DNA of 64,000 nucleotides from Minisyncoccota bacterium (GTDB lineage Bacteria > Patescibacteriota > Minisyncoccia > Phycocordibacterales > Phycocordibacteraceae): NCBI GenBank assembly GCA_035627655.1, contig DASPLI010000001.1, positions 24,265 to 88,264 on the forward strand. Reading direction: 5' to 3'. The position numbers and the translations under genes were made by a program. This document shows, in pieces, positions 24,338-64,000 of this stretch (position 1 is the stretch's first letter; every line of letters starts with the position of its first letter). The notes beneath the pieces were generated by a model, which saw only the letters and a list, made by a program, of their open reading frames with translations, was not told the origin of the DNA and did no database searches.

Positions 24338-24341
24338 ACGC

Positions 24342-24581: not shown

Positions 24582-25055
24582 CTATCCGAGCTTTTGAATT
24601 CGGCGCAGATGTCGTTCCTCAGGAGATACAGGGGCCCCGAGAAATCGCTCAACTGCAGTCTTTGCCTCCTCTGCTGTAAGGAATCTCGCGGCAAGAGAGA
24701 GCACGTTCGCATGATTGTGTGCACGCGTTGACTCCAGCATCGAGAGTGATGCGCCCTCCGCGTCAGTCTGCATGGTTGCAGGCTCTCCGTAAAATACCGC
24801 GGCACGCACGCCAGGGATTCGATTTGCTGCCATTGCTTCTCCCTGCCCAGAAGCGCCAATAACGATACCGAAGCTGCCTGGCGTCTGCGCAACTTTCTGC
24901 GCGCATGGCGTTACGAAATCAGGATAGTCGTCGTCCGATTGTTCTTCGTAGGCACCGCAATCCTCCACTGTATGGCCACGCTCCTGCAAAAAGGCCGTGA
25001 GCTCTGCCTTGAGCGCAAAGCCTGCATGATCGGCTGCGAGAAAGATCTTAGGCAT
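24582..25055 (-). CDS. rpiB: Ribose-5-phosphate isomerase B.
   Basis: MPKIFLAADHAGFALKAEL...GIVIGASGQGEAMAANR matches RpiB/LacAB. It overlaps gap by 8 nt. Confidence 0.85.
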   Translation of the reverse strand: MPKIFLAADHAGFALKAELTAFLQERGHTVEDCGAYEEQSDDDYPDFVTPCAQKVAQTPGSFGIVIGASGQGEAMAANRIPGVRAAVFYGEPATMQTDAEGASLSMLESTRAHNHANVLSLAARFLTAEEAKTAVERFLGAPVSPEERHLRRIQKLG

Positions 25056-49775: not shown

Positions 49776-51890
49776 TTACTTCAACGAATTTAAAAATTCT
49801 GTTCCGACAGAAATTGTTTCTGGAAACAGCGACATCATGCGCTGAATTTCTGCACGTGCGTTTGCTGTTTGTCCTGCGGCTACGTATGCCTGCGCGAGCG
49901 CGAGCCGCTGTTCCGAACTGCGTGGATAATTTCGCACACGAAGTTCGGCCGACTGAATCCATTTGTCATACGCCTTCACGTCAGCATAGGCAAAGCGCAG
50001 AATGTCATAGTCTAGTGTTGTTGTGCCAAAACGATTCATGAGGAAAGCGTCAGCTGCAGCCATGTTGCCAGTAATAACAGAACCGGCTGCTGCGTACGCA
50101 GCAGGCTCGTCGAAGGACGGATCAAGTGCATACGCCGCCTCAAAATCTTCTCGAGCTCCGGTTCGATCTCCTGCCTGCCAGCGCATAGAACCGCGCTGTA
50201 AAAGAGTTGTTTGTTTCTTCGGTGAAAGCTCATGGGCTGCGGTTGCCTGTGCGACCGCTTCTGCGCTCAAACCACCAGCAAGCAGACCCGCCGCAAATTC
50301 GAGCCGAAGTCGCGGATCGCCTGGCACGCGAGCAACTTCCTTCTGCATTTCATTGAGCGCACTTATGTATACCTGCTCCTTAAGCTCAACGGGCAGCTGC
50401 GGATTACGAATAATGGCAACTGCGGCAAGCAGGTACTGTTCTCGCAGCTCCTGTGTCGCAAATGAGTTGCTCGTTAGCGCTGTACTAAAGCTACTAATAG
50501 CGGTCATGGGATCACGTGTGCTAAGACCCCGAATAAGAGCCTGGCTTGCGACAATGCCGGGAACGTTTACAAACCACAGCACCAGTACCGTCACAATAAG
50601 CGCAACAGGAGCAATAACGACACCGCGCAGTGCGGGCACCTGCTCAAACAGCTTCCAGGGACGAGCGGTTTGCGCATAGATGTACGCGATAACTGCCGCA
50701 AGTAATACGTAGGAAAATAGGTTATCGAACACAAAGAGCGCTTGAAAGCCGTATGCAGCAAGAGCTCCCGTGAGGAAAATACGCTCGGTAATTGAGCCGG
50801 GACCGCGCCAAAGCGCATAAAGCGTTACGCCAAGCAGCGACAAAAAGAGGACGAACGCTGGCAGTCCTCCTGCAGAAAGCCAATCAATGTAGACATTGTG
50901 CGCTCGGTCGAACCACGGCTCCTGCGCATAGAGCGAAGGCTCGTAGTATTTCGCAAACACGAAGTTAAAGCCCTCGTGCCCCCAACCGGTTATGGGACGA
51001 TCAAGGAATCCTTTCCAAGCCATACTCCAGAGCGTCAATCGTGTTTCAGCATCCGCAAATGAGATGGAGGCAATGCGGCCAAAACTTGGATCGTTTCGCA
51101 CCACATCAATGTCCTTGATTGCCCAGAAACCAGCGATAACAAGGACCCCGGCAATCAGTGCGCCAAGCGCAATTCGACGCGCTGCCCTAACACGAAGAGC
51201 ATACAAAAACGCGATTAGGAGCGCTGAGGCCACGAACGCAAGCATGGCACCGCGTGTCGCGGTAGCGAACAGTAAGATTGTTTGCACCCCTACGAGCGCA
51301 AAGAGTCCGTACCGGAGCCATCCTCGCGACTCGATTCCCTGCCAAACCGCAATCGCGATAACGAAGAGAAGATAGGCCGCAAAGTATGCCGCGTTGCCGA
51401 AGCTCGCATCAAGACGGACGCCACCTTGGTGAATCGCGAGGAGTCCCATAAGCTGCAACACGCCATAACCAGCAATGAGAACAGACGCGCCGAGGAACAC
51501 GCGCCACCAAGACTTCCAAAGCTTCTCAACGGTAAGCACAGATCCCATAACCAGAAAGAGTAGGAAAACGTGGATCATGGTGATCCAACCGTCCATGCGC
51601 TCGTAATTGCTCCAGAATGCTTTATGGGCGTTTGGCGCTACCAGATCAGCAAGGAACATCCAAGCAACGAAGAGCGCATAGATAGCGAGTATCCAGGAGA
51701 AGCGTGGACGATATCGCGGATCAAGAGCCGCAAGCACCACCCACGCACCAACAGCAATTTCAACGAGAATACGGAACGCAAACCCCTTACTCGCAATAAA
51801 CGGAAAGAAAAGGTCGCCCGCAACATAGAGCGGCAGGACCGGAATTATGAACAGCGCGCCAAGAACGATCCATCGCGCAGCCGCCTGCAT
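49776..51890 (-). CDS. O-antigen ligase (Wzy_C) family membrane protein fused to C-terminal TPR repeats.
   Basis: About 12 TM helices with a large loop, then ~230 aa of TPR-like helical repeats (AYALDPSFDEPAAYAAAG...LALAQAYVAAGQTANARAEI). Confidence 0.55.
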   Translation of the reverse strand: MQAAARWIVLGALFIIPVLPLYVAGDLFFPFIASKGFAFRILVEIAVGAWVVLAALDPRYRPRFSWILAIYALFVAWMFLADLVAPNAHKAFWSNYERMDGWITMIHVFLLFLVMGSVLTVEKLWKSWWRVFLGASVLIAGYGVLQLMGLLAIHQGGVRLDASFGNAAYFAAYLLFVIAIAVWQGIESRGWLRYGLFALVGVQTILLFATATRGAMLAFVASALLIAFLYALRVRAARRIALGALIAGVLVIAGFWAIKDIDVVRNDPSFGRIASISFADAETRLTLWSMAWKGFLDRPITGWGHEGFNFVFAKYYEPSLYAQEPWFDRAHNVYIDWLSAGGLPAFVLFLSLLGVTLYALWRGPGSITERIFLTGALAAYGFQALFVFDNLFSYVLLAAVIAYIYAQTARPWKLFEQVPALRGVVIAPVALIVTVLVLWFVNVPGIVASQALIRGLSTRDPMTAISSFSTALTSNSFATQELREQYLLAAVAIIRNPQLPVELKEQVYISALNEMQKEVARVPGDPRLRLEFAAGLLAGGLSAEAVAQATAAHELSPKKQTTLLQRGSMRWQAGDRTGAREDFEAAYALDPSFDEPAAYAAAGSVITGNMAAADAFLMNRFGTTTLDYDILRFAYADVKAYDKWIQSAELRVRNYPRSSEQRLALAQAYVAAGQTANARAEIQRMMSLFPETISVGTEFLNSLK

Positions 51891-51900
51891 AGTGTTGGCA

Positions 51901-52995
51901 CTATAGCACAGCCTGTACGCCTCCCTGTTTTAGTAGTGGTAGCGCTTTATTGAAATAAGCATCAAAGCGGAGGTAGTTTCTGTATACTTCTCGTGCTCGT
52001 TTTTGCATCTCTGCGTACTCTTCGTCAGAAAGTTTATTCCAAATATCCATAATGTAATTCCCTATACAACCAATTTTATGATACGGAACTCGTATAGTGA
52101 AAGTTGAATAGTCAAGATACTGTTCAAACGGCAGGATCATATCTGTGTCAATTAAGACCGGTATCCGTCCAAGAGAAAGGGTCTCGTAAAACCGGGCCGA
52201 GAAATTTCCATCGCCTTTCGGACAAAGAATAAAGTCACTTTCCAGAATATTTTCTATAAACTCGGACCGGAGAGATTGAGGGTCTTCTTTTATGGTAGCG
52301 GTGTTTCCAGAAAACGAAGACCGAATGACGAACAGCTTTTCTATTCTTGTATCGCGCTCTAACAGCTGTATGGCTTTGCGTCGGAAATAGATCCCCCTCT
52401 TATATTGAGTACGACTGCTAAGGTCTAGAAAGAAGTTTTCAAAATAGTACTTAATTCGCGCTCGCAAGTTTGGAAATCCTGCATAACCACAAAAACCAAC
52501 AATTGGTTTCCTACTTCCTTTTACCCGAAGCGAAGATTTTACTCTTTCTCCTAAATCTTCAGTAAAAGATGCAAATAGTATCTCGTTACTTCGTCTTGCA
52601 GAGCGGTACTCTGAAGGTTTGAATACAATATAGGCCGGATGTTGAATATGCACTCGATGACAGAGATCGCCTGTTAAAAATACAATCACCTGCTTATTTA
52701 GAGATTCTGCATGGGAACCAACTTCATCTAAATATACTTTGATATCTGGAGTAATTTTTCTAATCGACTGCGGCACTATAAGAAAATCTGCTTCTTGTGG
52801 TTCTTTTACTTCTTGAGTTGTGGTAATGGCAAAATCATGAGGTGTTTCCTTAAAGAGTACCTTACGTTCTCCTGTAGCGTTCACTTGTAAAGGGTCAAGT
52901 AACCTGATCTTAGATTTTCTTGAGAAAACATGGGTCACATAGAGCCGTACAAGATTCATTCCGAGAATGATACCAGGTGTTACAATGCTTTCCAC
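51901..52995 (-). CDS. Exostosin-like (GT47-type) GT-B glycosyltransferase.
   Basis: The C-terminal FILCPKGDGNFSARFYETLSLGRIPVLI matches the exostosin-family pattern F-C-L-x-P-x-G-D-x-x-S-x-R-x-F-E-(A/T)-L-x-x-G-x-I-P-V. The start is probably the internal Met at 52959, which avoids overlap with the divergent methyltransferase. Confidence 0.5.
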   Translation of the reverse strand: MESIVTPGIILGMNLVRLYVTHVFSRKSKIRLLDPLQVNATGERKVLFKETPHDFAITTTQEVKEPQEADFLIVPQSIRKITPDIKVYLDEVGSHAESLNKQVIVFLTGDLCHRVHIQHPAYIVFKPSEYRSARRSNEILFASFTEDLGERVKSSLRVKGSRKPIVGFCGYAGFPNLRARIKYYFENFFLDLSSRTQYKRGIYFRRKAIQLLERDTRIEKLFVIRSSFSGNTATIKEDPQSLRSEFIENILESDFILCPKGDGNFSARFYETLSLGRIPVLIDTDMILPFEQYLDYSTFTIRVPYHKIGCIGNYIMDIWNKLSDEEYAEMQKRAREVYRNYLRFDAYFNKALPLLKQGGVQAVL

Positions 52996-53767
52996 AATGA
53001 ATTTAAAGCGGGTTCTGAGGCACTGGCTCTCTATTCCTAAAGCAGACCATCACATGGTGCCTGATATATATGGGCGCTCCGCTAGTAAAATGACTGACAT
53101 AAGGTCCGATACGAATTTTCTCAAATTAGCTGATTCTGCCCGCGCAAACCGAAGAACCCTCTTATACTACGACCGTCTACATACTATTTATCAGTCCCTC
53201 AGGAATCTTGATCGACTTATTCCTAAAAATGAAGTGTTACGCGCAGCGGAAATTGGGGTATACAAAGGCGGAGGTTCTTACTTCATTTCCTCAGTCTTAG
53301 AGAATCTCGGGAGGCAAGCTGAACACTTCGCTGTCGATACTTTCGAAGGACACAGTGTCCAAGATCTTCCCCTCGGTCACGAGGGAGGACATGTGCCAAA
53401 ACAGTTCGACAAAACTGATTTTGAAGACGTGCAAGCGTATCTTGCTCGTTTCCCTACGACTACCGTTATCAAAGGCCGCATACAGGACGCAGCCAAAAAA
53501 CTAGGACCGTCACCATTCCACTTTCTGCACCTTGATATGGATATTTACGAACCAACGCTCTTTGCTCTGAACGAGTACGTAACAAGAATGGGGGTTGGAG
53601 GAGTAGTAGTTATCGATGACTATGGGTTTACAACATGCCCAGGTATTAAGAAGGCGGTAGACGAATATCTGGAAACCACGAGCGGGTTTCTACGTCTGGA
53701 ACTTCTTACGGGTCAATGTATCCTTATAAAACTTAGAGACGAAACACAAAAAGAGGCTAGTGTCTAA
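52967..53767 (+). CDS. TylF/MycF-family (macrocin-type) sugar O-methyltransferase.
   Basis: FHFLHLDMDIYEPTLFALNEYVTRMGVGGVVVIDDYG..CPGIKKAVDEY is the conserved metal-binding D-x-D...IDDYG core of the TylF family. Confidence 0.6.
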   Translation: MIPGVTMLSTMNLKRVLRHWLSIPKADHHMVPDIYGRSASKMTDIRSDTNFLKLADSARANRRTLLYYDRLHTIYQSLRNLDRLIPKNEVLRAAEIGVYKGGGSYFISSVLENLGRQAEHFAVDTFEGHSVQDLPLGHEGGHVPKQFDKTDFEDVQAYLARFPTTTVIKGRIQDAAKKLGPSPFHFLHLDMDIYEPTLFALNEYVTRMGVGGVVVIDDYGFTTCPGIKKAVDEYLETTSGFLRLELLTGQCILIKLRDETQKEASV

Positions 53768-53793
53768 CACCTCTCGATACGGGTCGAGAGGTG
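53768..53793. terminator. Hairpin lying exactly between two convergent stop codons.
   Basis: cacctctcga-tacggg-tcgagaggtg forms a perfect 10 bp stem. The stop at 53765-53767 is on the plus strand and the stop at 53794-53796 is on the minus strand. Confidence 0.5.
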
Positions 53794-54897
53794 TTACCGC
53801 TTCCAGGAAAGCGCAGATTCTGGAAGCATCGTATCAGCCGGAATATCGGAATCAGCAATGCGACCAATGATACCTTCAAGGTGAACTGGATTGATACCAC
53901 TTCCCGGGATCTTTGTAACAAGGTCGTCTGCGGTCACCCGCTGGCCCTTTTGAATATCCCGTGCCGCAACAATGCTCTTTGCAAGCTTGTTTCTGACCAC
54001 CAGTTCCCCTTCATGGATGCGCTTTTCGAGAGAACCAAGCAGCTTCTCAACGCGACGAATGCCATCAACCATTTCTTTGAACATAGGCGGATCGATGGAC
54101 ATGTGGTGGTCAGAACCACGCATTGTTCGATCAAGCGTGAAATGGCGTTCAACGGTCGTAGCACCCATGCCAACCGACACAATCGTTGGGAGAATGTCCG
54201 GTTCGTGACCAGAATATCCAACCGGCAGCGGTGCATAGCGCTTCCGAAGAACACTCACCATATTGAGATCAACGTTCTCGTCCGGAGTCGGATATATAGA
54301 CGTGCAGTGATTGACGATAAGACGGTTGTTGTAAGAAAGAATAGTTTCAATCGCGCGATCCATCTCCTCTAAGGAAGACATGCCGGTCGAAAGAAGAATT
54401 GGCTTGTCCTTCTTTGCAACGTGAATAAGAAGCGGCTGGTTCGTAATGTCGAACGAGGAAATCTTGTAGGCATGGACGCCAATGGACTCAAGCTCGTCTG
54501 CACTTGCGATATCGTGCGGAGTTGCAAAGAAGATCATGCCGAGGTTCTCGGTGTAGTCGTTGAGTTTTTTATAGTCCTCAATCGTAAGTTCTTGATTGCG
54601 GCGATGCTCACCATACGTCTTGCCGAAAGAACGCTCGTTCACATACGGCATTTCCTTCATTTCCTTTGAAATGAGCGCTTCCACATCGCGCTTCTGGAAC
54701 TTCACAGCATCTGCACCGGCGTCAGCCGCCGCCTTAATGGTGCGCATCGCAAGGTTAAAGTCGCCGTTATGGTTGTTCCCAATCTCAGCAATGATAAACA
54801 CCGGGTGCCCCTCCCCGACTGGTCGGGTGCCAATCTTCACGCGCTTAGGCAGGAGGCCAAACAAGCGCTTGAGGTTGGTGGAAAGTGGTGCTGCCAT
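53794..54897 (-). CDS. NeuB-family nonulosonic acid synthase (N-acetylneuraminate, pseudaminate or legionaminate synthase).
   Basis: The TIM-barrel NeuB core includes IIAEIGNNHNGD, AGADAVKFQK and NHCTSIYPTP. The C-terminal SAF domain includes HLEGIIGRIADSDIP. Confidence 0.8.
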   Translation of the reverse strand: MAAPLSTNLKRLFGLLPKRVKIGTRPVGEGHPVFIIAEIGNNHNGDFNLAMRTIKAAADAGADAVKFQKRDVEALISKEMKEMPYVNERSFGKTYGEHRRNQELTIEDYKKLNDYTENLGMIFFATPHDIASADELESIGVHAYKISSFDITNQPLLIHVAKKDKPILLSTGMSSLEEMDRAIETILSYNNRLIVNHCTSIYPTPDENVDLNMVSVLRKRYAPLPVGYSGHEPDILPTIVSVGMGATTVERHFTLDRTMRGSDHHMSIDPPMFKEMVDGIRRVEKLLGSLEKRIHEGELVVRNKLAKSIVAARDIQKGQRVTADDLVTKIPGSGINPVHLEGIIGRIADSDIPADTMLPESALSWKR

Positions 54898-54945
54898 AAG
54901 TAGCGGTAAGCATACTCCTCTTGGGTCGTTTTTTCAAATACAAAA

Positions 54946-54968
54946 AACGCCCTGCCGTGCAGGGCGTT
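54946..54968 (-). terminator. Rho-independent terminator downstream of the cupin gene.
   Basis: aacgccctg-ccgtg-cagggcgtt, followed on the minus strand by TTTTTTG. Confidence 0.45.
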
Positions 54969-54979
54969 TAGAGTTGTTT

Positions 54980-55492
54980 CTAGGCTTTGTACGGCTGGCG
55001 CGGGAACCCAACCTCAACTTGGTCAAGCGTTGTTGTCGGAAGACCGCCTTCAGGGATCATTTCGCCATAGCGCTCTTCCGAACGAACCCGATCATTAAAG
55101 ACTGGATTCGATACTTCGAAGATCACAAGGTCCTCAAGTGCCGTCTCGCGATGCACTGCCCCCGGGGGGATGTGTAGCGCTTCGCCAGGGCCGAGTTCTC
55201 GAGAGACGATAGTTCCGTCGCCCGGATCCCATTCAACCAAGAGTCGGCCGGACAAAATGTACCCGGCTTCGTCTTTCAGTCGGTGGAATTGCAGACCGCC
55301 ACGCGAGCCTTTCTTGTATTTAAGGAGCTTACCCGTATAGAGGTCCGTATGGATGAGGAGCACTTCCTCACCCCACGGACGCTCCCAAACTTCTGGTGTA
55401 AGAAACTCCACGACTGGTTTCTTTTCATCCTGCATGAATTTCTCCCGTGTGTTTGGCAAACGGACTCTAATGGATTTTCCGGTCTTGGTCAA
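54980..55492 (-). CDS. Cupin-fold protein, sugar epimerase/ketoisomerase-like.
   Basis: GGLQFHRLKDEAGYILSGRLLV...GEALHIPPGAVHR carries the two-motif cupin signature. The function within the glycan locus is not assigned. Confidence 0.45.
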   Translation of the reverse strand: MTKTGKSIRVRLPNTREKFMQDEKKPVVEFLTPEVWERPWGEEVLLIHTDLYTGKLLKYKKGSRGGLQFHRLKDEAGYILSGRLLVEWDPGDGTIVSRELGPGEALHIPPGAVHRETALEDLVIFEVSNPVFNDRVRSEERYGEMIPEGGLPTTTLDQVEVGFPRQPYKA

Positions 55493-55502
55493 TCTGCGTG
55501 AG

Positions 55503-56219
55503 CTATGACTCGCTTTGACGTCGCCTCAGGAGCTCCTCGGCCACCATGAAATCTACGTCGGTATCAATATCGATCGCTTCTGATTTTGGTACTTGAAGGT
55601 ATCGAATCTTATTCCCTGCCATGCTTCGGTCTTCGACTAACGTCTTCCAACGCAGTGCAATCACATCAATGTGCTGATGGGCCTCGGGAAATGATTGCCG
55701 GGGGAGATTGTGCGCGTCTTTAAGACCTATAAATTCCTCAGACAAAAACGGCACCAGATAGTCTCCCTCCGTTTTCCAGAGCTTATACGGATGCTTGGCA
55801 GCAGGAACAACGGTGCGCGAAGAGTCGGCTACAGGGTCATTCAAGAGAAGCTCTATGCAAGCATCGATGCGTTCAGGGGTGCACAGAGGCGCGGTAGGTG
55901 GCAACCGAACGATGATATCCGCTTTCCAGCCCTCCTGTTTATACAGCCAAGTGGCCGCGTGATGTAGATAGTCAAAATCCGGCACGGCGTCTCCAGACAA
56001 CTCGTCCGGACGAATAAAGGGCACTTCGATACCAAGCTCGCCTGCAAGCTGGGCATACTCCGGGGAATCCGTTGAAACGATGATGCGGCTCAAGTGCTTT
56101 GATTTCTTCCCCGCCTCCGCAATCCAGGCAAACAACGGCTTACCAAGGAGCGGTTGTATATTCTTATGCGGGATGGATTTTGAGCCAGACCGTGCGCCGA
56201 TAACGCCGAGGATGTTCAT
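55503..56219 (-). CDS. Acylneuraminate cytidylyltransferase family enzyme (CMP-nonulosonic acid synthetase, NeuA/PseF/LegF-like).
   Basis: MNILGVIGARSGSKSIPHKNIQPLLGKPL is the CTP_transf_3 N-terminal signature. Confidence 0.75.
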   Translation of the reverse strand: MNILGVIGARSGSKSIPHKNIQPLLGKPLFAWIAEAGKKSKHLSRIIVSTDSPEYAQLAGELGIEVPFIRPDELSGDAVPDFDYLHHAATWLYKQEGWKADIIVRLPPTAPLCTPERIDACIELLLNDPVADSSRTVVPAAKHPYKLWKTEGDYLVPFLSEEFIGLKDAHNLPRQSFPEAHQHIDVIALRWKTLVEDRSMAGNKIRYLQVPKSEAIDIDTDVDFMVAEELLRRRQSES

Positions 56220-56221
56220 GG

Positions 56222-57601
56222 CTAGGATGCTAGCACTGTAAGAATAGCCTGCCCAGCCCGCTCCCCCGACCTCCCATCAAGCTTATAGAGCATGCGCTCA
56301 GTAAGCACGTCGCGCTCTGCCTGGAGATACTCTGGATTCTCAAGAAACGTGTTTAGCAGCTGAACTAGGTGTGTGTGACTTCTTGCGAGCGGCACTGCAC
56401 CGGTTTTGATCACGTTGCGATAGTGTTCGCGTTCGTAAATGAAAGCAATGGAGCGACGGTACGGAAGTTTTCGATCACCATCGTACGCGATAATAATGGC
56501 CGGTTTGCGGTTCGCCATCGCATCAAGTGTGAGCGTCGAGTCGACGTTGATGATCACATCTGCATGGCGAAGCGAGTTGGCCAGATGAATAACGTCATCA
56601 TCTTTAAAGGTCCACTGATTCGCATCTTTCCCACTATCGAGGCTGAATTCTCCCCCAGCAGCAAAGTACTTCCCTGGTTTATCAAACACTACATTCGTGG
56701 TTTGCAGTCCCTCGGTCGAGTCTCGATATTTGGGATGAAAGCGTGCAAGTACCTGGAACGGCTCTACGAATGCCCCTTGTGTAATCTGCTCATCGAGCAT
56801 AGCGATAATGGGACGAGTATCGGGAGATTTCCAGTCGCCCGGAATGCCGTAGAGCGCATACCGCGCAGCAGGGTTGAGGCCCACTTTTTCAAGAAACGCT
56901 TCACGTGGCAGGAATATGTCTTCGCGGGTATAGATGTCGAACTGCGGGAACCCAACCACAACAACTCGACTTGGCGGGTAGTCACCATACTGAGACGCTT
57001 CTTTCTTATTGAACTCGTTATACACGAGCAATCGATCTGCTTTCACACGGGTAAACGCCTTCGTCGTCAGCACGTCCCAACTCTTCGCAATCGTAACGCT
57101 TGGCACTTTGCGTCGTCGTGCCGTCAGCAGAAGCCTACTGTCTTCCGGTGAGAACATATTGGCCGCAAACAAAAGATCCGGTCGATATTTCTCAAACAAC
57201 GCTTCGGCGTATGATTCCCCAAACACTCGATAGAGTAGGCGAAGAAACTCTCGCCACACCCGCGAATGCGCTAGTATCCCCGCAATGCTACCGATTACAA
57301 ACAGGTGGTACTTTCCGGTATTCCAGTATTCACGTATCCGACGAACTGCCACTGCGTGCGTGGGTATAGAGTTCCAACCAGCGTAATACCAGAGCGTTTC
57401 CTGTCGAGAGCCGGAAGGCGGTAAGAGTTCGACCGCTACTTGTTCGTTTGCAAACTCGCGCTGGTAATGTTCGATACGGTCAGCACTGCGCACCAGAAGC
57501 ACAATTTTGTGTCCACTTTCCTTAAGTACTCGAAAGACGTCAGTTCGCAAAATGACGCGTTCGGTATCACCATCAAATATGGAAATGAAGATAGTTTTCA
57601 T
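56222..57601 (-). CDS. TagB/TagF-family (CDP-glycerol glycerophosphotransferase-like) polymerising transferase.
   Basis: The C-terminal half has ALYGIPGDW (compare VLYAPTWRD), ARFHPK (the R-x-HP motif) and IINVDSTLTLDAMANRKPAIII (compare ITDYSSV-FDF...KP-I-F). These comparisons are from recall. Confidence 0.4.
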   Translation of the reverse strand: MKTIFISIFDGDTERVILRTDVFRVLKESGHKIVLLVRSADRIEHYQREFANEQVAVELLPPSGSRQETLWYYAGWNSIPTHAVAVRRIREYWNTGKYHLFVIGSIAGILAHSRVWREFLRLLYRVFGESYAEALFEKYRPDLLFAANMFSPEDSRLLLTARRRKVPSVTIAKSWDVLTTKAFTRVKADRLLVYNEFNKKEASQYGDYPPSRVVVVGFPQFDIYTREDIFLPREAFLEKVGLNPAARYALYGIPGDWKSPDTRPIIAMLDEQITQGAFVEPFQVLARFHPKYRDSTEGLQTTNVVFDKPGKYFAAGGEFSLDSGKDANQWTFKDDDVIHLANSLRHADVIINVDSTLTLDAMANRKPAIIIAYDGDRKLPYRRSIAFIYEREHYRNVIKTGAVPLARSHTHLVQLLNTFLENPEYLQAERDVLTERMLYKLDGRSGERAGQAILTVLAS

Positions 57602-58953
57602 GACCGGAATTTGCTTTTGACGAATCTCATCCCATCTCGAATAAACAAGCCGTCCGCGCTATCAGGAAGCACGAGGTGATGCAGTTTGTAGGACAGTTCT
57701 TCTCGCGTCGTCACATACCAAAGACTTATCCCATACGAAAGCACGCTATCAATAAGGAACCAGACAGCGAACCCAGAGAGTCCAAGCCACACAAGGAGAA
57801 ACGGTAAGAAAATAAAGGATAATTTCGAAATGGCGTTGACCATAAAGAACGCCTTTTGCGCCTTCCGTGCGTAGTACCACTCAGTAAGCACGCTTGTGCC
57901 CGAACGAAACGGAATAGCTACCAATAGGAGAAGATAGAGCGGGAGCGCAGCAAGATAACTTGGGAAGAAGGACGGAAATACCACATACGCAATAATCAAT
58001 ACACCAACCCCGACTAAGACCTGTCCCCACAAAGCGTAGCGCATGGCGCGTATAAGCCACTCTCCTATTCGCTCACGATCTGCGGTAAATCGCGGAAGAA
58101 TGGAACGAAGCACGTACTGCACTGGCACGAGCGCGGTCACCTGTCCCACCAGGACAACCGCAATACTGATAATGCCCACCTGCGAAATACTCAGGAAATA
58201 GCCCACGATCCAGGGCCAGGCGGAACTAGCTGCTGTTTGCACATAGTCTTCGGCGAACGCCCACTTCCCTCGCCGCCACATCGCTTCCTTGAATGAGTAC
58301 ACCTGATCCGCCTCAACTGCCTTCTGTGCATCACGAGGCCGAAAGAGAAAGGGCAACAACGCAAGTGTTCCAAAAGTGGTAGAGAGCGTATACGCAAGAA
58401 CGAGCCCGAGGATGCCGTAGTCAAAGACACCAAGAAAGATGACCAAAAGTACGATGTAGCCAACCGCACCAATAAGATCCATTACTTGCGCGTAGGTGGG
58501 TTCGAGGCGCGCCTGAAACGCAACCTGCATCGCTTGTCGCAGTCCGCCAATCAGCAAGGTTACAGCAAGGATCAGCAGCATGGTCGTAAGCCCGATCCCA
58601 GAAATACTGCTGATCACCGGAGCTGCTATACAGAGCGCGCCCGCTGAAAAAAGTCCCATCAGGCAGAAATAGCCAAGTGCTCGGCGCAATATTGCTTGTG
58701 CTGCACCAGATCGCCCTGCGCCAAGCTCACGCGAAATGTCAGCAACCAGAATCCCAGAAATACTCCCAAGACTGATAAGCCCAAAAAAGGACACGACACT
58801 GAGGAGAAGCCGCCAGAGACCGTAGTCGTACGTTGTGAGGTGGGTAAGAACAAAAAAGGTTGCGAACAATCCTAATATCTTTGCGAGCACGCTTCCCGCG
58901 CTGGTGATAAAGACGCCTTCAACTGCCTGCCGTCGGATACTTTTATCGCTCAT
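57598..58953 (-). CDS. Wzx-type polysaccharide/oligosaccharide flippase of the MOP superfamily.
   Basis: About 12-14 TM helices. The N-terminus VFITSAGSVLAKILGLFATFFVLTHLTTYDYGLW is typical of the Wzx/polysaccharide biosynthesis protein family. The start is taken at MSDKSIRR. Confidence 0.7.
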   Translation of the reverse strand: MSDKSIRRQAVEGVFITSAGSVLAKILGLFATFFVLTHLTTYDYGLWRLLLSVVSFFGLISLGSISGILVADISRELGAGRSGAAQAILRRALGYFCLMGLFSAGALCIAAPVISSISGIGLTTMLLILAVTLLIGGLRQAMQVAFQARLEPTYAQVMDLIGAVGYIVLLVIFLGVFDYGILGLVLAYTLSTTFGTLALLPFLFRPRDAQKAVEADQVYSFKEAMWRRGKWAFAEDYVQTAASSAWPWIVGYFLSISQVGIISIAVVLVGQVTALVPVQYVLRSILPRFTADRERIGEWLIRAMRYALWGQVLVGVGVLIIAYVVFPSFFPSYLAALPLYLLLLVAIPFRSGTSVLTEWYYARKAQKAFFMVNAISKLSFIFLPFLLVWLGLSGFAVWFLIDSVLSYGISLWYVTTREELSYKLHHLVLPDSADGLFIRDGMRFVKSKFRS

Positions 58954-60079
58954 GGCTGAGATAGGTAAGAACACGCTCAATACGCGCTCTCCAAGTGTTT
59001 GCAAAACCAAGTCTATCAGCTGCCTGCGCTCGTACGTCCCCTTCCTGCGGATGTTCTTGTACATAGGTGATAGTAGAAGCAAGGGCTTGTGGAGACCCTG
59101 GCTCAAGAAAGAAGGCTTCCTGATCGGAGAGCATTTCTCGTATCGCAGGGAAATCAGCAACCAGTATCGGACGGCTTGCTGCCATATATTCATACAACTT
59201 CATAGGCGACGTTTCCTCCTGAAAGAACTTATGCGGTGGCGGTGTATATATGAGCGCGTCCATGGCAACCGTATAGCGTGCAAGCGTGCTCTGCTCCTGC
59301 TGGTATGGCACGAAGATGGTCCGCTCTGCTACACCAAGCTCTTGCGCACGCTTCCGAAAATGCTCAATCTCTTTCTCCGTTCCACCTACGAAACAGAAGT
59401 GGACGCTCGAGTCTTTAAGCAGTGCGAGCGCGTCCAGTCCTAGGTTGATACCTTTATCAACGCCAAGCGCGAGGAAACGCCCTACGTAACCGACGAGATA
59501 CACATCGCCTGGAAGCCCGAGTGAAGCGCGTAAAAGTGGCTTTGTTTCTTTGAGTGCCGTTACATACGGCTCACGATCGACCGCATTTGGAATAACAGTA
59601 CTCTTTCGAAGAGTACCGAACCGCGCCTTCGCACTGTCTTCCATGTGCTTGGTGACAAACACCAGCGCGTCTGCATTCTTGCAGACAAACCTATCTGTAA
59701 GAGGTGAATGCAATCCATGGCACTCATAAAGCACAGAAAACCTAAAGACGGTTCTCCAAAAAAGGAGGACGGCCGCCATTTTGCTCTCTTGCGTCAGTAC
59801 GATAACCTCCCTTCCTCGCCATGAAGGATGGGTGAGAAAAAACCAGCCACTATAAAAAAGAAAGAAGAGTGAGATGAGTCGGAACCTGCGAAGTGGAAGC
59901 CAGCGAGGTGCCATTGATTGATGCGGTATGTTCGCAAGCTTCCCCGCGTCGTCATAGAGAACCAGATACAGAAAATTGTCCTTTAACAGCGCCGCATATT
60001 CGCGCGCAGTTATGAGCCCATGCTTGAAGGGCGCTGCAAATGCCGGATAGTGGAACGAGGAAGCGAAGAGAACTTTCAT
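58943..60079 (-). CDS. Family 1 glycosyltransferase (GT4-type).
   Basis: C-terminal GT-B domain with the E-x7-E region ETSPMKLYEYMAASRPIL. Confidence 0.75.
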   Translation of the reverse strand: MKVLFASSFHYPAFAAPFKHGLITAREYAALLKDNFLYLVLYDDAGKLANIPHQSMAPRWLPLRRFRLISLFFLFYSGWFFLTHPSWRGREVIVLTQESKMAAVLLFWRTVFRFSVLYECHGLHSPLTDRFVCKNADALVFVTKHMEDSAKARFGTLRKSTVIPNAVDREPYVTALKETKPLLRASLGLPGDVYLVGYVGRFLALGVDKGINLGLDALALLKDSSVHFCFVGGTEKEIEHFRKRAQELGVAERTIFVPYQQEQSTLARYTVAMDALIYTPPPHKFFQEETSPMKLYEYMAASRPILVADFPAIREMLSDQEAFFLEPGSPQALASTITYVQEHPQEGDVRAQAADRLGFANTWRARIERVLTYLSHER

Positions 60080-61731
60080 TTCTCGAGCAGGTAGTCCCCA
60101 AGCGCGAGCGCATCAATACCTGTAGAGAAATAGCAGCGAAGCGCGTCGAAGGCAGAACAGACGATAGGCTCCCCCTTGTCATTGAACGACGTGTTGAGAA
60201 CCATCGGATGCCCAGTTGCTTTCCCAACCTCGGTCAAGAGTTCGTGGAAACGTGGATTCTGCTCTTTGCTTACCGTCTGAATACGTGCAGATCCATCGAT
60301 GTGAGTAATGGCTGGGAATGTTGATCGATACGCTTTCTTTACATAAAAGGTTTGCAGCATGTACGGACTTTCCTTCGCCTTGGGGAGGCCTTCGAAGTAT
60401 GTGGCAGCTGACTCGACCGTTAGGGAGGGTGCAAATGGTCGCCACACCTCTCGATGCTTCACGTCGTTATTGATCTTATCGTTCATCCCAGGAATCTGAG
60501 GGTTCGCGAGGATCGAACGGTTACCAAGCGCACGCGGGCCAATTTCACTTCGACCCTGGAACCAGCCAACAATCTTGCCGTCTTTAATGAGGCGTGCAAC
60601 GTCAGCTGCAATGTGCTCCGATTTTCGATAACTAACTTTTGCGGAGGTCAAAAGCTTCTCGACTGAGTCGTTGTCGTACGATGGACCCCAATACGCATTT
60701 GGAAACGAAACAAAATCACCGTCTCCAACTCGATGCATCGCCTCAAGCGCTGCCCCAAGCGCAACTCCCCCGTCATGCGCGGCCGGCTGTATAAAAACGG
60801 CGTCGACGAATTCTGAAAGAAGGAGACGCGAGTTGCTGTTGCAGTTGAGTGTGACGCCGCCGGCAAGCGCAAACGTGCGCAGTCCGGTGCGTTTATATGC
60901 ATCTTCGCCAAGGTGTACGAATGCCTCTTCTAGAGCATGTTGCAGAGAGGCGGCAAGATCCTTATGATCTTGGGTCAGTGGTTCTGTCTCTAACTTTCGT
61001 TCGTAAGAACCGTACAAGGTACGGATATTCCTTCGATCTACGTGGCATCTATCCCAGCTCTCTACCTTCAGTATTTTTGAGAAGTCAAAACGAGGGGTGC
61101 CGTAGGACGCAAGACCCATGGTCTTCCCTTCCGCATTTTCTCCCAGCTTAAGGAAAGAGGTGAGTTCCGAGTACGTCTTACCAATAGAGCGCCACGGGCG
61201 CGTGTCGGTCGGATAGGCAATCGGAAGGGTCGCAAGTCGAGTCAACTTTCCTCCTCGCCCTTCAAACAAGCCAGCGCAGTCATGTTCGCCCGCTCCGTCA
61301 ATCGTCATGACGTTTGCGTCTTTAAATGGCGCACAGCGATAGGAACTTGCTGCGTGCGCGAGGTGGTGATCTATGTACATGATGCGTGCACCGCCCGCTT
61401 TCTTTGCAAGCATGCCGACGCCGCGCGAAAAGACAAAGATATTTGCGACGTAAGAAAACATCGCCCACGGAGAAAGAAAGAAGAATCCGTTTTTGAGGAA
61501 CCCCCACGGATTATAGGAAACGGCAATAACGTCAATATCCTTAATCGTGATACCGCCTTCCTTAAGGCAGTAGTCAATTGCTTTATGTGGTGTTCCTTTG
61601 TGGTGACGCTGGCGGTTGAACCGCTCTTCTTCCATGGTGGCAACGAGCTTTCCATCCATCACCAGGGCGGCAGCGGAGTCGTGCATACCGGAGAGGAGGC
61701 CGGTCACCTGGTTGATTCCGAGAATATTCAT
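60076..61731 (-). CDS. NodU/CmcH-family O-carbamoyltransferase.
   Basis: N-terminus MNILGINQVTGLLSGMHDSAAALVMDGKLVATMEEERFNRQRHHKG. Also IDHHLAHAASSY and the YrdC/Kae1-like C-terminal half. 551 aa. Confidence 0.8.
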   Translation of the reverse strand: MNILGINQVTGLLSGMHDSAAALVMDGKLVATMEEERFNRQRHHKGTPHKAIDYCLKEGGITIKDIDVIAVSYNPWGFLKNGFFFLSPWAMFSYVANIFVFSRGVGMLAKKAGGARIMYIDHHLAHAASSYRCAPFKDANVMTIDGAGEHDCAGLFEGRGGKLTRLATLPIAYPTDTRPWRSIGKTYSELTSFLKLGENAEGKTMGLASYGTPRFDFSKILKVESWDRCHVDRRNIRTLYGSYERKLETEPLTQDHKDLAASLQHALEEAFVHLGEDAYKRTGLRTFALAGGVTLNCNSNSRLLLSEFVDAVFIQPAAHDGGVALGAALEAMHRVGDGDFVSFPNAYWGPSYDNDSVEKLLTSAKVSYRKSEHIAADVARLIKDGKIVGWFQGRSEIGPRALGNRSILANPQIPGMNDKINNDVKHREVWRPFAPSLTVESAATYFEGLPKAKESPYMLQTFYVKKAYRSTFPAITHIDGSARIQTVSKEQNPRFHELLTEVGKATGHPMVLNTSFNDKGEPIVCSAFDALRCYFSTGIDALALGDYLLEK

Positions 61732-61779
61732 GCAATAGCGACAGTGTAGCGAGGGGCTGAAAAGGACGCAACGTAGGTG

Positions 61780-62427
61780 TTAGGGGCGCGGTTTAGGACC
61801 TTTTGCAGCAAAACAGAGATTAAAGGCAAAGGCCTGCGGAAACCAACGAGCAAGTACCCCGAGACTGCCAATGCCTTCGACCCGAACTTCGGTAAACACC
61901 ACCTCAAGCAATGTCTGTAACTCCTGCACACTGAAGTGATTGATATGTGTCGGGTCAGCAAGCGATGTATGGCGTTTCTGTTTTATGAGATACCGGAACC
62001 GATTCATAAGCGAATAAGGATTCGGCACCGTACCGACTAGCATTCCTCCCGGCTTTAATACCGCTCCTATCTTCTCAAGCACCACTTCCGGATAGTACAG
62101 GTGCTCCAGTACCTTAGCCGCAACAACCACATCATATGAAGCAGGCGCAGTATTCCAATCTCCGTTGAGGTCTACCTGACGTGTTTCAATACCGAGTTCA
62201 GCAGCGCGAGCGAGTGCGGCGGAGTCTATATCAAGTCCAGTTACTGTATTCCCTTCCATGTAGAGCTTGGTGAGAGATCCGTCTCGACAGCCGATGTCGA
62301 GTACTTTCTTCCCTGTACCGATTGCTTTCCGAAGAAAAGCAGAACGCGCATCGCCGAGTAAGACAAATCCTGCACCACGCCTACTAGCGTGATGGGTCAT
62401 ATATACCTGCTCCAAGGAGGTACTCAT
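61780..62427 (-). CDS. Class I SAM-dependent methyltransferase.
   Basis: VLDIGCRDGSLT (motif I), DVVVAAKVLEHL and LKPGGMLV. Confidence 0.7.
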   Translation of the reverse strand: MSTSLEQVYMTHHASRRGAGFVLLGDARSAFLRKAIGTGKKVLDIGCRDGSLTKLYMEGNTVTGLDIDSAALARAAELGIETRQVDLNGDWNTAPASYDVVVAAKVLEHLYYPEVVLEKIGAVLKPGGMLVGTVPNPYSLMNRFRYLIKQKRHTSLADPTHINHFSVQELQTLLEVVFTEVRVEGIGSLGVLARWFPQAFAFNLCFAAKGPKPRP

Positions 62428-63449
62428 GCCTTCACTATAACCTCGGTAAGCGCACTGCCTAGGCGACTTAGGCTATGTCCCTGCGCAAAGCTTAGCAGAT
62501 TGTCTCGATCTACTGCAGGCACGCCAGCACGGAGAACTACTTCAAGTCTTTGAGCAAGTTCTGAAGCGCTAGAAAACCAGTGGGAATCATCGACCATGTC
62601 TCGTATATCGTCGCTGGCAGCAAGAATAAAACAGCCAGCGGCTGCGGCTTCAAAAATAGTTTTGTCGAGCATTCCTGAAGGTGACGCATTCACAAATATT
62701 TCGTGCGAATGAAAATAGCTTGGAGCTTCCTGGTGAGGAACGCCAGGACGTATAGCAACGTGCTCGGTAAGGCCAGTTTGTGTTATGCGTTCTTTAAGGT
62801 CTCGAGCGTAGCCCTCATGCTCAGGAAGCGGCGAGCCGATAATAGAAGCCGAAAATAAAACGCCGCGCTGCTTTAGAAGACCCAGTGCGTCAACAAACAT
62901 ATCTGCTCGCTTTGACGGTGACAGTCTTCCGAAGAAGAGTATGGAGTGTGGCTCTGGTGTGTTATCAGGTTTTGAGAAACGCTCCGTTTCTATACCGACA
63001 GGCATACGGCGTGTTTTTGCATATTTTGCAGTGTACGAATGCTTTGAGGTGCAGAAGACATGTTTACAAAACGATGCTGCAATGTCGGTCAGGAATGAGC
63101 CGTGATGATGGTTTCGCCAAAGAAATGCGGGTTTGCCGAGTATCTGCCAAAGCCAGCCTGCAAGGAGGAGGTACTCCTGATTCATATGTACAAAAACACG
63201 ATCATACCGATTTCGAAGACGCCACACTAACGAGAGAAATCGAATAGCGTACTGCAGTCGAATGGTTCGACCACGCTCCTTGCCGAGGGAATGCACACGA
63301 ACGTTTGCAGGTAATATATGCCGTCCCTCTTTGAGACAAATGACCTCAAGTTCAGGGAAGTGTCCGGCGAGAACTACCAGCCATTCGTGATACACGCTGA
63401 GAACTGGATCGTCGAGATCTACTGCTTGCGTGACGACAAGAAGCCTCAT
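62424..63449 (-). CDS. Family 1 glycosyltransferase (GT4-type).
   Basis: LFFGRLSPSKRADMFVDA...EIFVNASPSGMLDKTIFEAAAAGCFILA is the GT-B C-terminal domain. The start is taken at MRLLVVTQ. Confidence 0.7.
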   Translation of the reverse strand: MRLLVVTQAVDLDDPVLSVYHEWLVVLAGHFPELEVICLKEGRHILPANVRVHSLGKERGRTIRLQYAIRFLSLVWRLRNRYDRVFVHMNQEYLLLAGWLWQILGKPAFLWRNHHHGSFLTDIAASFCKHVFCTSKHSYTAKYAKTRRMPVGIETERFSKPDNTPEPHSILFFGRLSPSKRADMFVDALGLLKQRGVLFSASIIGSPLPEHEGYARDLKERITQTGLTEHVAIRPGVPHQEAPSYFHSHEIFVNASPSGMLDKTIFEAAAAGCFILAASDDIRDMVDDSHWFSSASELAQRLEVVLRAGVPAVDRDNLLSFAQGHSLSRLGSALTEVIVKA

Positions 63450-63453
63450 GATG

Positions 63454-64000
63454 TTACGTAGTTGCCAAAACGTAATAACCAGCGGTTGTGCTCCGATTTT
63501 CTGTCTTGAAGAGCGTATCGAAAAATTCGGCAAGCGGATTTAGGATCCCGCGCATCTTTGCCTGCCCCGGAACAAAGAAAGAAAGAGCAAGGAAGTACCC
63601 GCCACGTTTTTGAATACGTATGTCCGTACACCCCGCAAACAACTCATCGATAGTGTCACGAAAGAATCGCCAATAGTCTGGGTAATGGCCTTTGTGCGCG
63701 TGATACGGATAAATAGATGGTACATAAAGAAAGATCTGCCCGCCTGGCCGAACAATGCGGCGCAGTTCTTTCATGGCCGCAAGCGGGTCTCGCACATGCT
63801 CGAGAACTGAACTACAAATAACGGCATCTACAGAACTGTCAGGAAGCGGGATAGCATGAATATCTCCAACGATATCCGCTCCAGTACTTACGTCGAAATC
63901 CATCGTCTTGTAATCACAGCCAGCAAAGAGAGATTCGTATGGCCGCATCCACTTACCAAAACGTCCGCCTCCGCCAACATCAAGCACTATGCGCTCTTTT
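63454..64000 (-). CDS. Class I SAM-dependent methyltransferase (Methyltransf_11-like), partial; the N-terminus lies beyond the window end.
   Basis: LDVGGGGRFG (motif I), VDAVICSSVLEHVRDP and RPGGQIF. Confidence 0.6.
   Translation of the reverse strand, partial: KERIVLDVGGGGRFGKWMRPYESLFAGCDYKTMDFDVSTGADIVGDIHAIPLPDSSVDAVICSSVLEHVRDPLAAMKELRRIVRPGGQIFLYVPSIYPYHAHKGHYPDYWRFFRDTIDELFAGCTDIRIQKRGGYFLALSFFVPGQAKMRGILNPLAEFFDTLFKTENRSTTAGYYVLATT

Follow-up and report, generated by a model that had tools for sequence, protein, structure and literature searches.

In gene clusters of the neuBCA, legBCHIGF, and pseBCHGIF types, a synthase and a CMP-activating enzyme for an acidic nine-carbon sugar (nonulosonic acid) are encoded inside a surface-polysaccharide locus. 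The same arrangement is found at positions 49776–64000 of the DNA analyzed here, a stretch of 64,000 nucleotides (below, the window) from contig DASPLI010000001.1 of a Minisyncoccota bacterium, a member of the Candidate Phyla Radiation (CPR, Patescibacteria). Here, a NeuB-family synthase and a CMP-nonulosonate synthetase are accompanied by a Wzx-like protein, a Wzy_C protein, glycosyltransferases (GTs), a carbamoyltransferase, and methyltransferases, and the original prediction of a surface-glycan locus, made from the sequence of the window, stands in this general form. The locus differs from the above clusters in having no NeuC/LegG epimerase, PseB-type 4,6-dehydratase, DegT aminotransferase, or N-acetyltransferase, and in its synthase, which scores below the curated cut-offs and lacks a residue equivalent to Arg314 of NeuB from Neisseria meningitidis.

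The pathway for 2-keto-3-deoxynononic acid (Kdn) in Bacteroides thetaiotaomicron (BT1713, BT1714, and a CMP-Kdn synthetase) and Prymnesium parvum resembles the locus in the TYG(E/A)HR loop of the synthase, in a phosphatase of the haloacid dehalogenase (HAD) superfamily, encoded here in sister loci, and in a NeuA-like cytidylyltransferase (PMC6200933). This pathway needs no hexosamine genes, because its precursor is a sugar phosphate of central metabolism. Unlike the Kdn pathways, the synthase of the window keeps a SAF domain, missing in the P. parvum Kdn-9-phosphate (Kdn-9-P) synthetase (PpKdn9PS) and in a clade linked to KdsC-like phosphatases; no phosphatase is linked to the synthase here, a cupin belongs to the module, and the activating enzyme has Met in place of the gatekeeper Arg196.

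The O-glycosylation locus of Tannerella forsythia (Tanf_01245/TFUB4_00887/BFO_1060) also combines a TagB-like protein of the GT-B fold with nonulosonate genes and a Wzx-like flippase, and its glycan, which ends in a derivative of pseudaminic (Pse) or legionaminic (Leg) acid, also bears methyl and other non-carbohydrate decorations, but T. forsythia has full PseB/C- or LegB/C-type pathways, absent at the present locus (PMC5420450). Similarly to Wzx/Wzy loci for O-antigens and capsules, the locus comprises GTs, a MOP-type flippase, a Wzy_C protein, and modifying enzymes in a co-directional block with a conserved site and variable content; in contrast to them, the block has no initiating phosphoglycosyltransferase or chain-length regulator, and its Wzy_C protein, which includes a TPR domain, could act not as a polymerase but as a ligase or a protein O-oligosaccharyltransferase. 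The CPR bacteria hosting such loci have no outer membrane and no lipopolysaccharide. Kdn, sometimes O-methylated, also occurs in cell-wall or capsule polymers of monoderm or soil bacteria, namely, in actinobacterial teichulosonic acids and, as 5-O-methyl-Kdn, in the capsule of Sinorhizobium fredii.

We conclude that the locus very probably encodes a surface glycan containing a nonulosonate. The full mechanism proposed below, with a nonulosonate-9-phosphate-type route and Kdn made from mannose-6-phosphate (Man-6-P) as the leading candidate, in our estimate has an even chance of being correct.

NeuB-Family Synthase

The conserved core module consists of a TagB-like transferase, a CMP-nonulosonate synthetase, a cupin and/or a HAD phosphatase, and NeuB. 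Genes were called from a listing of open reading frames (ORFs) combined with Pfam and NCBIfam profile scans; in the window, the module is represented by the following four (aa, amino acids):

53794–54897, minus strand: NeuB-family nonulosonate synthase with a SAF domain, 367 aa (Pfam NeuB PF03102, 261.1 bits; SAF, 37.9 bits)
54980–55435, minus strand: stand-alone cupin, 151 aa, or 170 aa from an upstream TTG at 55492 (Cupin_2, 30 bits; weak MannoseP_isomer match)
55503–56219, minus strand: CMP-nonulosonate synthetase (NeuA/CMAS-like cytidylyltransferase), 238 aa (CTP_transf_3 PF02348, 77.6 bits)
56222–57601, minus strand: TagB-like GT-B protein, 459 aa (Glyphos_transf, 24.2 bits; NCBIfam BFO_1060, 41.7 bits)

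The NeuB domain of the synthase is full-length (model positions 2–240 of 241), and the SAF domain is C-terminal. An attempt to assign the enzyme by curated models gave none, as it is under the cut-offs of both TIGR03569 (the NeuB/NnaB equivalog, also covering LegI-like enzymes; 330 bits, cut-off 399.65) and the PseI model TIGR03586 (244.6 bits, cut-off 340.25). The comparison set comprised 120 close homologs, 80 genome loci with their flanks (loci are cited below by L numbers), and three reference sequences, namely, PpKdn9PS (PMC6200933, supplement), NeuB from N. meningitidis (NmNeuB), and SpsE from Bacillus subtilis (the latter two from PDB alignments). In biochemical tests, PpKdn9PS proved to be specific for Man-6-P (PMC6200933).

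The homologs with at least 48% identity form a single clade (92% bootstrap), and all its named members are Patescibacteria (Paceibacterota, Adler-, Buchanan-, and Colwellbacteria, Parcubacteria). Their α2–β2 loop follows the pattern FG-x-TYGEHR-xx-LE(L/F), reading FGKTYGEHRRNQEL in the window and YGDTYGAHREFLEF in PpKdn9PS. The loop FGKTYGEHRxxxEL has a counterpart in PpKdn9PS, while nothing alike is seen in NmNeuB, SpsE, and their relatives; the signature TYGE[HY][RK] is present in 110 out of the 120 closest homologs and absent from NmNeuB and SpsE. The second feature of the clade concerns Arg314 of the NmNeuB SAF domain, which contacts the N-acetyl group of N-acetylmannosamine (ManNAc) and was targeted in the mutants crystallized as 4ipi and 4ipj. 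This arginine (in “RPG”) is kept in NmNeuB, SpsE, and five out of six loci of the classic clade, while in all 69 sequences of the CPR clade the position is occupied by Ser, Gly, Ile, or Leu (Ile in the window, “KIPG”).

In a neighbor-joining (NJ) tree of the full-length alignment, deep nodes had bootstrap values of at most 29%, while catalytic-core columns gave moderate support. In the tree built on 302 such columns with 200 bootstraps, from sequences among which BT1714 and animal NANS are not represented, the CPR clade grouped with PpKdn9PS, L011 (a Bacteroidales locus with an adjoining KdsC-like phosphatase), and a 35-member clade of SAF-less synthases mostly flanked by KdsC-like phosphatases; the support was 62%, or 82% if one long branch was ignored. 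On the other side of the tree were NmNeuB, SpsE, and a clade of NeuB–AP_endonuc_2 fusions, and the CPR sequences grouped with the classic NeuB/SpsE in 0.5% of bootstraps. Hence the placement among nonulosonate synthases anticipated by the original prediction stands at the level of the family, but not at the level of the NeuB, PseI, or LegI clades, since the enzyme is below the cut-offs, has lost Arg314, and joins, with moderate support, a phosphatase-linked group resembling Kdn-9-P synthases. We propose that the clade is distinct from NeuB/LegI and PseI and resembles nonulosonate-9-phosphate synthases, such as the Kdn-9-P synthases of P. parvum and B. thetaiotaomicron.

The fusions form a group of their own: in about 30 of the loci L012–L080 (e.g., L019, 9650–11896), from many phyla, NeuB with SAF is fused to AP_endonuc_2, a xylose-isomerase-like TIM barrel, yielding proteins of ~630–780 aa, and the CMP-synthetases encoded next to them often have Arg as the Kdn gatekeeper residue. 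This clade may represent another uncharacterized nonulosonate route.

CMP-Nonulosonate Synthetase

The cytidylyltransferase scores 110 bits with the NCBIfam PseF model (cut-off 205.7). Among solved structures, it is nearest to NeuA/CMAS entries (9ftb, 6ifd, 1eyr, 1qwj, 9t4z), PpNeuA being one of these relatives, and the PDB matches reach 91.5 bits for NeuA (9ftb) and 82.6 bits for CMAS (6ifd), compared with at most 25.5 bits for KdsB; this identifies it as a CMP-nonulosonate synthetase. A pathway for 3-deoxy-D-manno-octulosonic acid was rejected, given a cytidylyltransferase that is NeuA-like and not KdsB-like and a synthase from the NeuB family and not KdsA.

Cupin and Phosphatase

The position between the genes of the CMP-synthetase and NeuB (below, the slot) was compared across sister CPR loci. 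It holds only a cupin in the window and L092, a HAD protein similar to KdsC and Kdn-9-P phosphatases in L090, such a HAD protein plus a cupin in L002, and a HAD_2-type phosphatase in L003, L004/5, and L091. Thus, a phosphatase, the hallmark of a phosphorylated route, occupies the slot in five out of seven distinct sister loci (L002, L090, L003, L004/5, L091). The HAD protein of L002 matches the KdsC subfamily model with 72 bits and the NCBIfam KDN-9-P phosphatase model with 64.6 bits; it is 57% identical to its L090 counterpart, and both are 28–29% identical to BT1713.

The cupin of the window belongs to a family of stand-alone cupins of 140–150 aa, several of which have the PF01050 domain (the C-terminal domain of type II phosphomannose isomerase, PMI) or are labeled by JGI as mannose-6-phosphate isomerase(-like). 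It adjoins NeuB in the window, L002, and L092, and homologs with 48–54% identity are found beside NeuB and CTP_transf_3 genes in three non-CPR contigs (L085, L086, L087), two of which, L085 (a metagenome-assembled genome, MAG, of Pseudomonadota) and L087, also have Hydrolase_3. A MAG that also encodes a NeuB of the CPR clade has a NeuB paralog fused to a C-terminal cupin (L007, 15063–16607). The fused cupin matches Pfam Lyx_isomer (31.8 bits) and the NCBIfam model of D-lyxose/D-mannose isomerase, the neighbors of the fusion are a cytidylyltransferase and a HAD phosphatase, and the window cupin is weakly homologous to the fused domain.

Residues Q49, H51, E56, and H95 are invariant in the cupin family, in addition to conserved Lys and Arg. 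A Gln/His/Glu/His set forms the Zn site of phosphomannose isomerases. The AlphaFold2 (AF2) model of the cupin is confident (predicted local distance difference test, pLDDT, 94.3), and a sequence search against the PDB yielded weak matches only, to KdgF, dioxygenases, and oxalate decarboxylase. The cupin may be an aldose–ketose isomerase feeding the synthase, most simply by converting fructose-6-phosphate (Fru-6-P) to Man-6-P.

TagB-Like Protein

The NCBIfam model BFO_1060 (NF046086) is matched by all 54 members of the TagB-like family (best E-value 4.7e-22); the window protein scores 41.7 bits against a cut-off of 200, mainly over its N-terminal half (model positions 40–163), which makes it a distant relative and not a member. 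In T. forsythia, deletion of BFO_1060 or Tanf_01245, also TagB-like GT-B proteins, removes the terminal Pse or Leg of the O-glycan (PMC5420450). Thirty out of the 54 proteins match TIGR04396 (“surface carbohydrate biosynthesis protein”), and weak matches are found to TarF (nine), TarB (two), and KdtA (a few), while none of the 54 matches the NeuC and WecB models, and there is no match to Pfam Epimerase_2 (PF02350). Glyphos_transf (PF04464) is the precomputed domain of most homologs, the window protein being just over the gathering score (22.1). The dipeptide H289–P290 is invariant in the 54 sequences; no clear D/E–D/E–G motif is seen, the nearest candidate being YDGD at 373–376. The AF2 model (pLDDT 93.7) has the GT-B fold.

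Counting the window locus once, the gene co-occurs with those of the CMP-synthetase and NeuB in 14 distinct loci, and the three form a contiguous triad in L009, a Bacteriovorax MAG. The original prediction considered this protein a TagB/TagF-like polymerizing transferase; given the BFO_1060 matches and the company of the CMP-synthetase and NeuB, a nonulosonate transferase fits better, and the most economical assignment would be a CMP-nonulosonate:glycan transferase and not a teichoic polymerase.

Precursor Genes

Pfam scans covering the window, its positions 1–46 kb included, and 10 kb past its end showed no Epimerase_2, DegT, Polysacc_synt_2, or acetyltransferase, and genes of the NeuC, PseB/C, or LegB/C/H/G types are missing for 10 kb or more in both directions. 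The same holds for relatives: DegT, Polysacc_synt_2, Epimerase_2, NeuC, NanE, PseB, and acetyltransferase genes are absent from at least 10 kb around NeuB in the window (together with L001, an independent assembly of the same locus, used for the sequence past position 64000), L002, L003, L004/5, L008, L090, L091, and L092. The absence of NeuC, PseB/C, and LegB/C-type genes from the window, as reported in the original prediction, is thereby confirmed, but its suggestion that precursor genes lie just past position 64000 fails, as the next 10 kb encode a methyltransferase, three GT4 enzymes, and a generic epimerase/dehydratase of the short-chain dehydrogenase/reductase (SDR) type, with genes of an LTD/PKD protein and of a TraG-like ATPase after them. 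The legionaminic set (dehydratase, aminotransferase, N-acetyltransferase, hydrolyzing 2-epimerase) was not found in the locus either, with only the generic SDR present; this 284-aa protein scores 89.6 bits with a dTDP-glucose dehydratase model and 72.5 bits with LegB (cut-off 475).

Assembly and Decoration Genes

Besides the module, the locus comprises the following genes:

49776–51890, minus strand: membrane protein of the Wzy_C superfamily (O-antigen ligase/polymerase/O-oligosaccharyltransferase) with C-terminal TPR repeats, 704 aa (Wzy_C, 77.6 bits; TPR families)
51901–52995, minus strand: exostosin/GT47-like glycosyltransferase, 352–364 aa (Exostosin_GT47, 53.1 bits; RXYLT1_C, 27.7 bits)
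52967–53767, plus strand: TylF-type sugar O-methyltransferase (TylF, 50.3 bits; Methyltransf_24, 49 bits)
57598–59004, minus strand: Wzx/MOP-like flippase candidate with multiple transmembrane segments, 468 aa, ORF to 59193 (homology to a PF01943 protein)
58943–60079, minus strand: GT4 glycosyltransferase, 378 aa (Glycos_transf_1, 63.8 bits; Glyco_trans_1_4, 63.7 bits)
60076–61731, minus strand: NodU/CmcH-family carbamoyltransferase, 551 aa (Carbam_trans_C, 232.5 bits; Carbam_trans_N, 162.1 bits)
61780–62427, minus strand: class I S-adenosylmethionine (SAM) methyltransferase, 215 aa (Methyltransf_23, 70.4 bits; Methyltransf_11/12/25)
62424–63449, minus strand: GT4 glycosyltransferase, 341 aa by the gene call on L001, ORF to 63533 (Glyco_trans_1_4, 45.5 bits; Glycos_transf_1, 37.2 bits)
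63454–64000, minus strand: class I SAM methyltransferase, truncated at the window edge (Methyltransf_11, 57.9 bits; full gene of 201 aa, to ~64059)

Thus, 13 glycan genes lie between 49776 and 64000, the TylF gene being the only one on the plus strand. Almost all genes named in the original prediction were recovered in place, but its counts were too high: ten and not 11 consecutive minus-strand genes start from 53794, and two and not three class I methyltransferases are among them. The predicted span starts at 49776, but the Wzy_C–TPR gene found there had not been named.

The Wzx candidate has no Pfam match; it is homologous to a PF01943 (Wzx) protein of L004 (BLASTP E-value 2e-14 over 406 aa) and has orthologs in L002, L004/5, and L008. 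Orthologs of the Wzy_C–TPR protein are encoded between the NeuB module and secA in L002, L003, L004/5, L008, and L091. Since Wzy_C also covers protein O-oligosaccharyltransferases of the PglL type, the glycan could also be attached to proteins. The GT47-like protein exceeds the gathering score (53.1 vs. 33.4 bits), but over model positions 204–282 of 293 only, that is, the C-terminal part; its gene is conserved beside NeuB in L002, L008, and L091.

The carbamoyltransferase, with 170 bits against a cut-off of 1000 for NCBIfam NodU, is not a NodU equivalog; it has an ortholog in L002, and its family is also present in the NeuB loci L014, L064, and L075. Together with the methyltransferases, it suggests O-carbamoylation and O-methylation of the glycan. 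The G+C (GC) content falls to 0.43 over 52001–54000, the region of the GT47-like and TylF genes, compared with ~0.52 in the flanks. In the TylF neighborhood, sister loci have FkbM/RfbT-type Methyltransf_21 genes, and in L002 the methyltransferase at the TylF position itself belongs to this other family. The GC dip and the different family in L002 suggest gene replacement within the locus.

Conservation and Variation Across Relatives

In several Paceibacterota (L002, L003, L091, and the window), the module is followed by the Wzy_C–TPR gene and then by secA and obg, and because of this synteny a phage or mobile-element origin of the locus was rejected. The decoration genes vary: a carbamoyltransferase with class I methyltransferases is present in the window and L002, most relatives have methyltransferases of the FkbM/RfbT type, and in L003 (1–2596) and L091 (1071–4245) the carbamoyltransferase is replaced by ATP sulfurylase/APS kinase and sulfotransferases, which predict sulfated glycans in some CPR relatives. 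Such variation of content at a constant place in the chromosome is the pattern of a hypervariable surface-antigen locus.

The original prediction held that nonulosonic acids are unusual in reduced-genome bacteria. This is at odds with more than 100 close homologs of the synthase, the named ones all from Patescibacteria, and with the syntenic position of the module beside secA; the module is widespread in Patescibacteria, so that, at the level of genes, nonulosonates do not appear unusual there. A full-text literature search found no paper linking Patescibacteria with nonulosonic or sialic acids.

Proteins of 780–960 aa with an LCAT/PGAP1-like lipase domain are encoded just downstream of the module in L002 (15323–18196), L090 (14269–16911), and L091 (10241–12580); they are absent from the window.

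Borders and Flanks

The cluster continues beyond the window, as originally predicted and confirmed on L001, where the edge methyltransferase is complete (8369–8974) and is followed by three GT4 genes and the SDR, a further ~4.3 kb in total. The next genes on L001 (1305–4116, ~4.3–7 kb past the window end) encode an LTD and PKD surface protein and a TraG/VirD4-like type IV coupling protein/ATPase; they flank the glycan locus, which therefore ends ~4.3 kb past the window.

Elsewhere, the window carries genes for enzymes of glycolysis and the pentose-phosphate pathway, for ribosomal proteins, and for an arylsulfotransferase, a sulfatase-family protein, and a protein of 2369 aa. The sugar-phosphate cluster at 19082–26058 comprises a class I aldolase, a PfkB kinase, a split transketolase, ribulose-5-phosphate 3-epimerase, RpiB, and glyceraldehyde-3-phosphate dehydrogenase, with a prepilin-type N_methyl gene at ~23897–24367 inside it. 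At 26939–30893, genes of an LTA-synthase-like sulfatase-family protein (plus strand), an Lnt/CN_hydrolase-like protein (plus strand), and an arylsulfotransferase (minus strand) are adjacent and may constitute another envelope-modification system. The 2369-aa protein is encoded by a single ORF at 35965–43074 (minus strand), with a weak HTH_17 match as its sole recorded Pfam hit and a GC content falling to 0.44 at its 5′ end (42–44 kb). Giant proteins without known function are typical of CPR genomes.

Discussion

Taken together, the genes suggest the following pathway. The PMI-like cupin would supply an aldose or aldose-6-phosphate, most likely Man-6-P from Fru-6-P, which the NeuB homolog would condense with phosphoenolpyruvate into a 9-phosphorylated nonulosonate, most likely Kdn-9-P. 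The phosphate would be removed by a phosphatase, encoded in the slot in most sister loci and presumably unlinked in this genome, and the NeuA-like enzyme would convert the product to a CMP-sugar. From it, the TagB-like enzyme could transfer the nonulosonate to a lipid-linked oligosaccharide built by at least six other transferases, namely, five GT4 enzymes (three of them encoded past the window) and the GT47-like one. The carbamoyltransferase and SAM methyltransferases would decorate the glycan, the Wzx-like protein would flip it, and the Wzy_C–TPR protein would either polymerize it or ligate it to an acceptor.

Several observations speak against this pathway or parts of it. Over the core columns, the synthase is 32% identical to PpKdn9PS and 37–38% to NmNeuB and SpsE, and bootstrap support for the deep nodes of the NJ tree is no more than moderate. 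No homolog of the HAD phosphatases is found in the 64-kb window (tblastn with five HAD queries); a linked phosphatase is likewise missing in P. parvum, where this was ascribed to redundant sugar phosphatases (PMC6200933). One of the cupin-bearing non-CPR loci, the TARA scaffold L086, lacks a HAD gene but has genes of the PseB-like and DegT types. The closest structures of the cupin are generic (KdgF, the cupin domain of CapF, dioxygenases), with PMI, lyxose isomerase, and cupin phosphoglucose isomerase at ranks 33–44 only in the fold search. The best Foldseek matches of the TagB-like model are UDP-N-acetylglucosamine (UDP-GlcNAc) 2-epimerases (query TM-score, TMq, ~0.55), and neither PF02397 nor PF00953, the families of initiating phosphoglycosyltransferases, was detected over the window and the following 10 kb. 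According to a 2026 structure paper, Arg196 of PpNeuA gates Kdn specificity, Arg being found in Kdn-specific enzymes only, Leu in enzymes active on N-acetylneuraminic acid (Neu5Ac), and Ile in PseF (PMC12934254). In the MAFFT alignment, this position is Met in the window, L002, L008, and L009, and the phmmer alignment of the window enzyme with Vibrio cholerae CMAS agrees, although with enzymes ~25–30% identical, the alignment carries some risk. Met here argues for an N-acylated C5 and against strict Kdn specificity; on the other hand, trout CMAS, with Leu at the gatekeeper, still prefers Kdn (PMC12934254).

The main rival explanation is, accordingly, an N-acylated nonulosonate (of the Neu5Ac type, via ManNAc-6-phosphate or ManNAc, or Leg-like), with precursor genes located elsewhere in the genome or the precursor scavenged from the host bacterium, and the cupin being accessory. 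We consider it rather unlikely. In its favor are the hydrophobic Met, as in Neu5Ac- and Pse-type enzymes, the higher identity to NmNeuB and SpsE, TIGR03569 (NeuB_NnaB) as the best-scoring curated model, and a more distant CPR locus, L010, with a DegT aminotransferase ~7 kb from NeuB; in addition, CPR bacteria live as episymbionts and take up many metabolites from outside. However, the synthase does not reach the NeuB cut-off, the loss of Arg314 extends to every member of the clade, and no hexosamine-modifying gene lies within at least 10 kb of NeuB in any of the eight close CPR loci. Alternatively, the NeuB homolog might use a sugar phosphate of other than mannose configuration, set by the cupin, and yield a different 3-deoxy-2-ulosonic acid (a Kdn stereoisomer, C8 or C10). 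The clade is uncharacterized and under all curated cut-offs, the cupin structures are generic, and the relatives found in other phyla are accompanied by SIS isomerases, GFO/IDH oxidoreductases, AP_endonuc_2 TIM barrels, transketolases, and aldehyde dehydrogenases, suggesting non-standard sugar precursors; but the loop signature is that of a Man-6-P-specific enzyme, the activating enzyme is clearly NeuA/CMAS-like and not KdsB-like, and the linked phosphatases belong to the KdsC/Kdn-9-P phosphatase family, which leaves this explanation improbable.

The other two rivals concern the TagB-like protein. Were it a very divergent hydrolyzing UDP-GlcNAc 2-epimerase, similar to NeuC or GNE, the triad neuC–neuA–neuB would be restored; like neuC, its gene always stands beside those of the CMP-synthetase and NeuB, and most of the top 50 PDB matches in Foldseek are such epimerases (WecB 1f6d, E-value 8e-15; MnaA; SiaA 6vlb; NeuC 5xvs). 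Yet identity to the epimerases is 10–13% with a root-mean-square deviation of 6–7 Å, which we take for generic GT-B similarity; the epimerase models are not matched by any family member, whereas all 54 match BFO_1060, 30 match TIGR04396, and nine match TarF; the His–Pro motif is invariant, PF04464 is the domain assigned to most homologs, and the locus would be left without a candidate nonulosonate transferase, so that this explanation is very improbable. The least probable of all is a polymerizing polyol-phosphate (teichoic-acid-type) transferase, with the nonulosonate added by another GT: despite the Glyphos_transf score above the gathering threshold, the weak TarF and TarB matches, and the Gram-positive-type envelope that CPR bacteria are thought to have, the BFO_1060 matches are much stronger than those to TarF, and in different phyla alike the gene shows tight linkage to those of NeuB and NeuA. 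The locus also has no glycerol-3-phosphate or ribitol-5-phosphate cytidylyltransferase (TagD/TarI-type) and no TagO/TagA-type gene, its only cytidylyltransferase being NeuA-like; this lack of a CDP-polyol supply disfavors a teichoic polymerase.

Returning to the pathway via Kdn-9-P, a wider proposal, which we put forward as tentative and rather doubtful, is that Patescibacteria widely possess an uncharacterized, self-contained Kdn-type route (cupin and/or phosphatase, the NeuB clade, activating enzyme, and transferase), whose sugar would cap a strain-variable glycan, carbamoylated and methylated or, in some relatives, sulfated, attached by the Wzy_C–TPR enzyme, possibly to pilins or S-layer proteins. 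The episymbionts would thereby have a sialic-acid-like coat with a part in host recognition.

The enzyme superfamily and the logic of the pathway are known, the new elements being the uncharacterized synthase clade, the cupin step, and the CPR lineage. The module of the NeuB clade, cupin, HAD phosphatase, NeuA-like synthetase, and TagB-like transferase is conserved in the CPR and beyond, and, to our knowledge, its cupin step and its transferase have never been characterized. CPR bacteria, which live attached to host cells, account for much of bacterial diversity; as far as we know, their surface chemistry is almost unknown and no CPR glycan structure exists. The locus and its syntenic, variably decorated relatives provide a concrete set of genes by which the idea of an acidic nine-carbon sugar on the surface of CPR bacteria can be tested. 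Synthesis of Kdn from Fru-6-P, if true, would explain how a sialic-acid-like sugar could be made without hexosamine-modifying genes in the locus.

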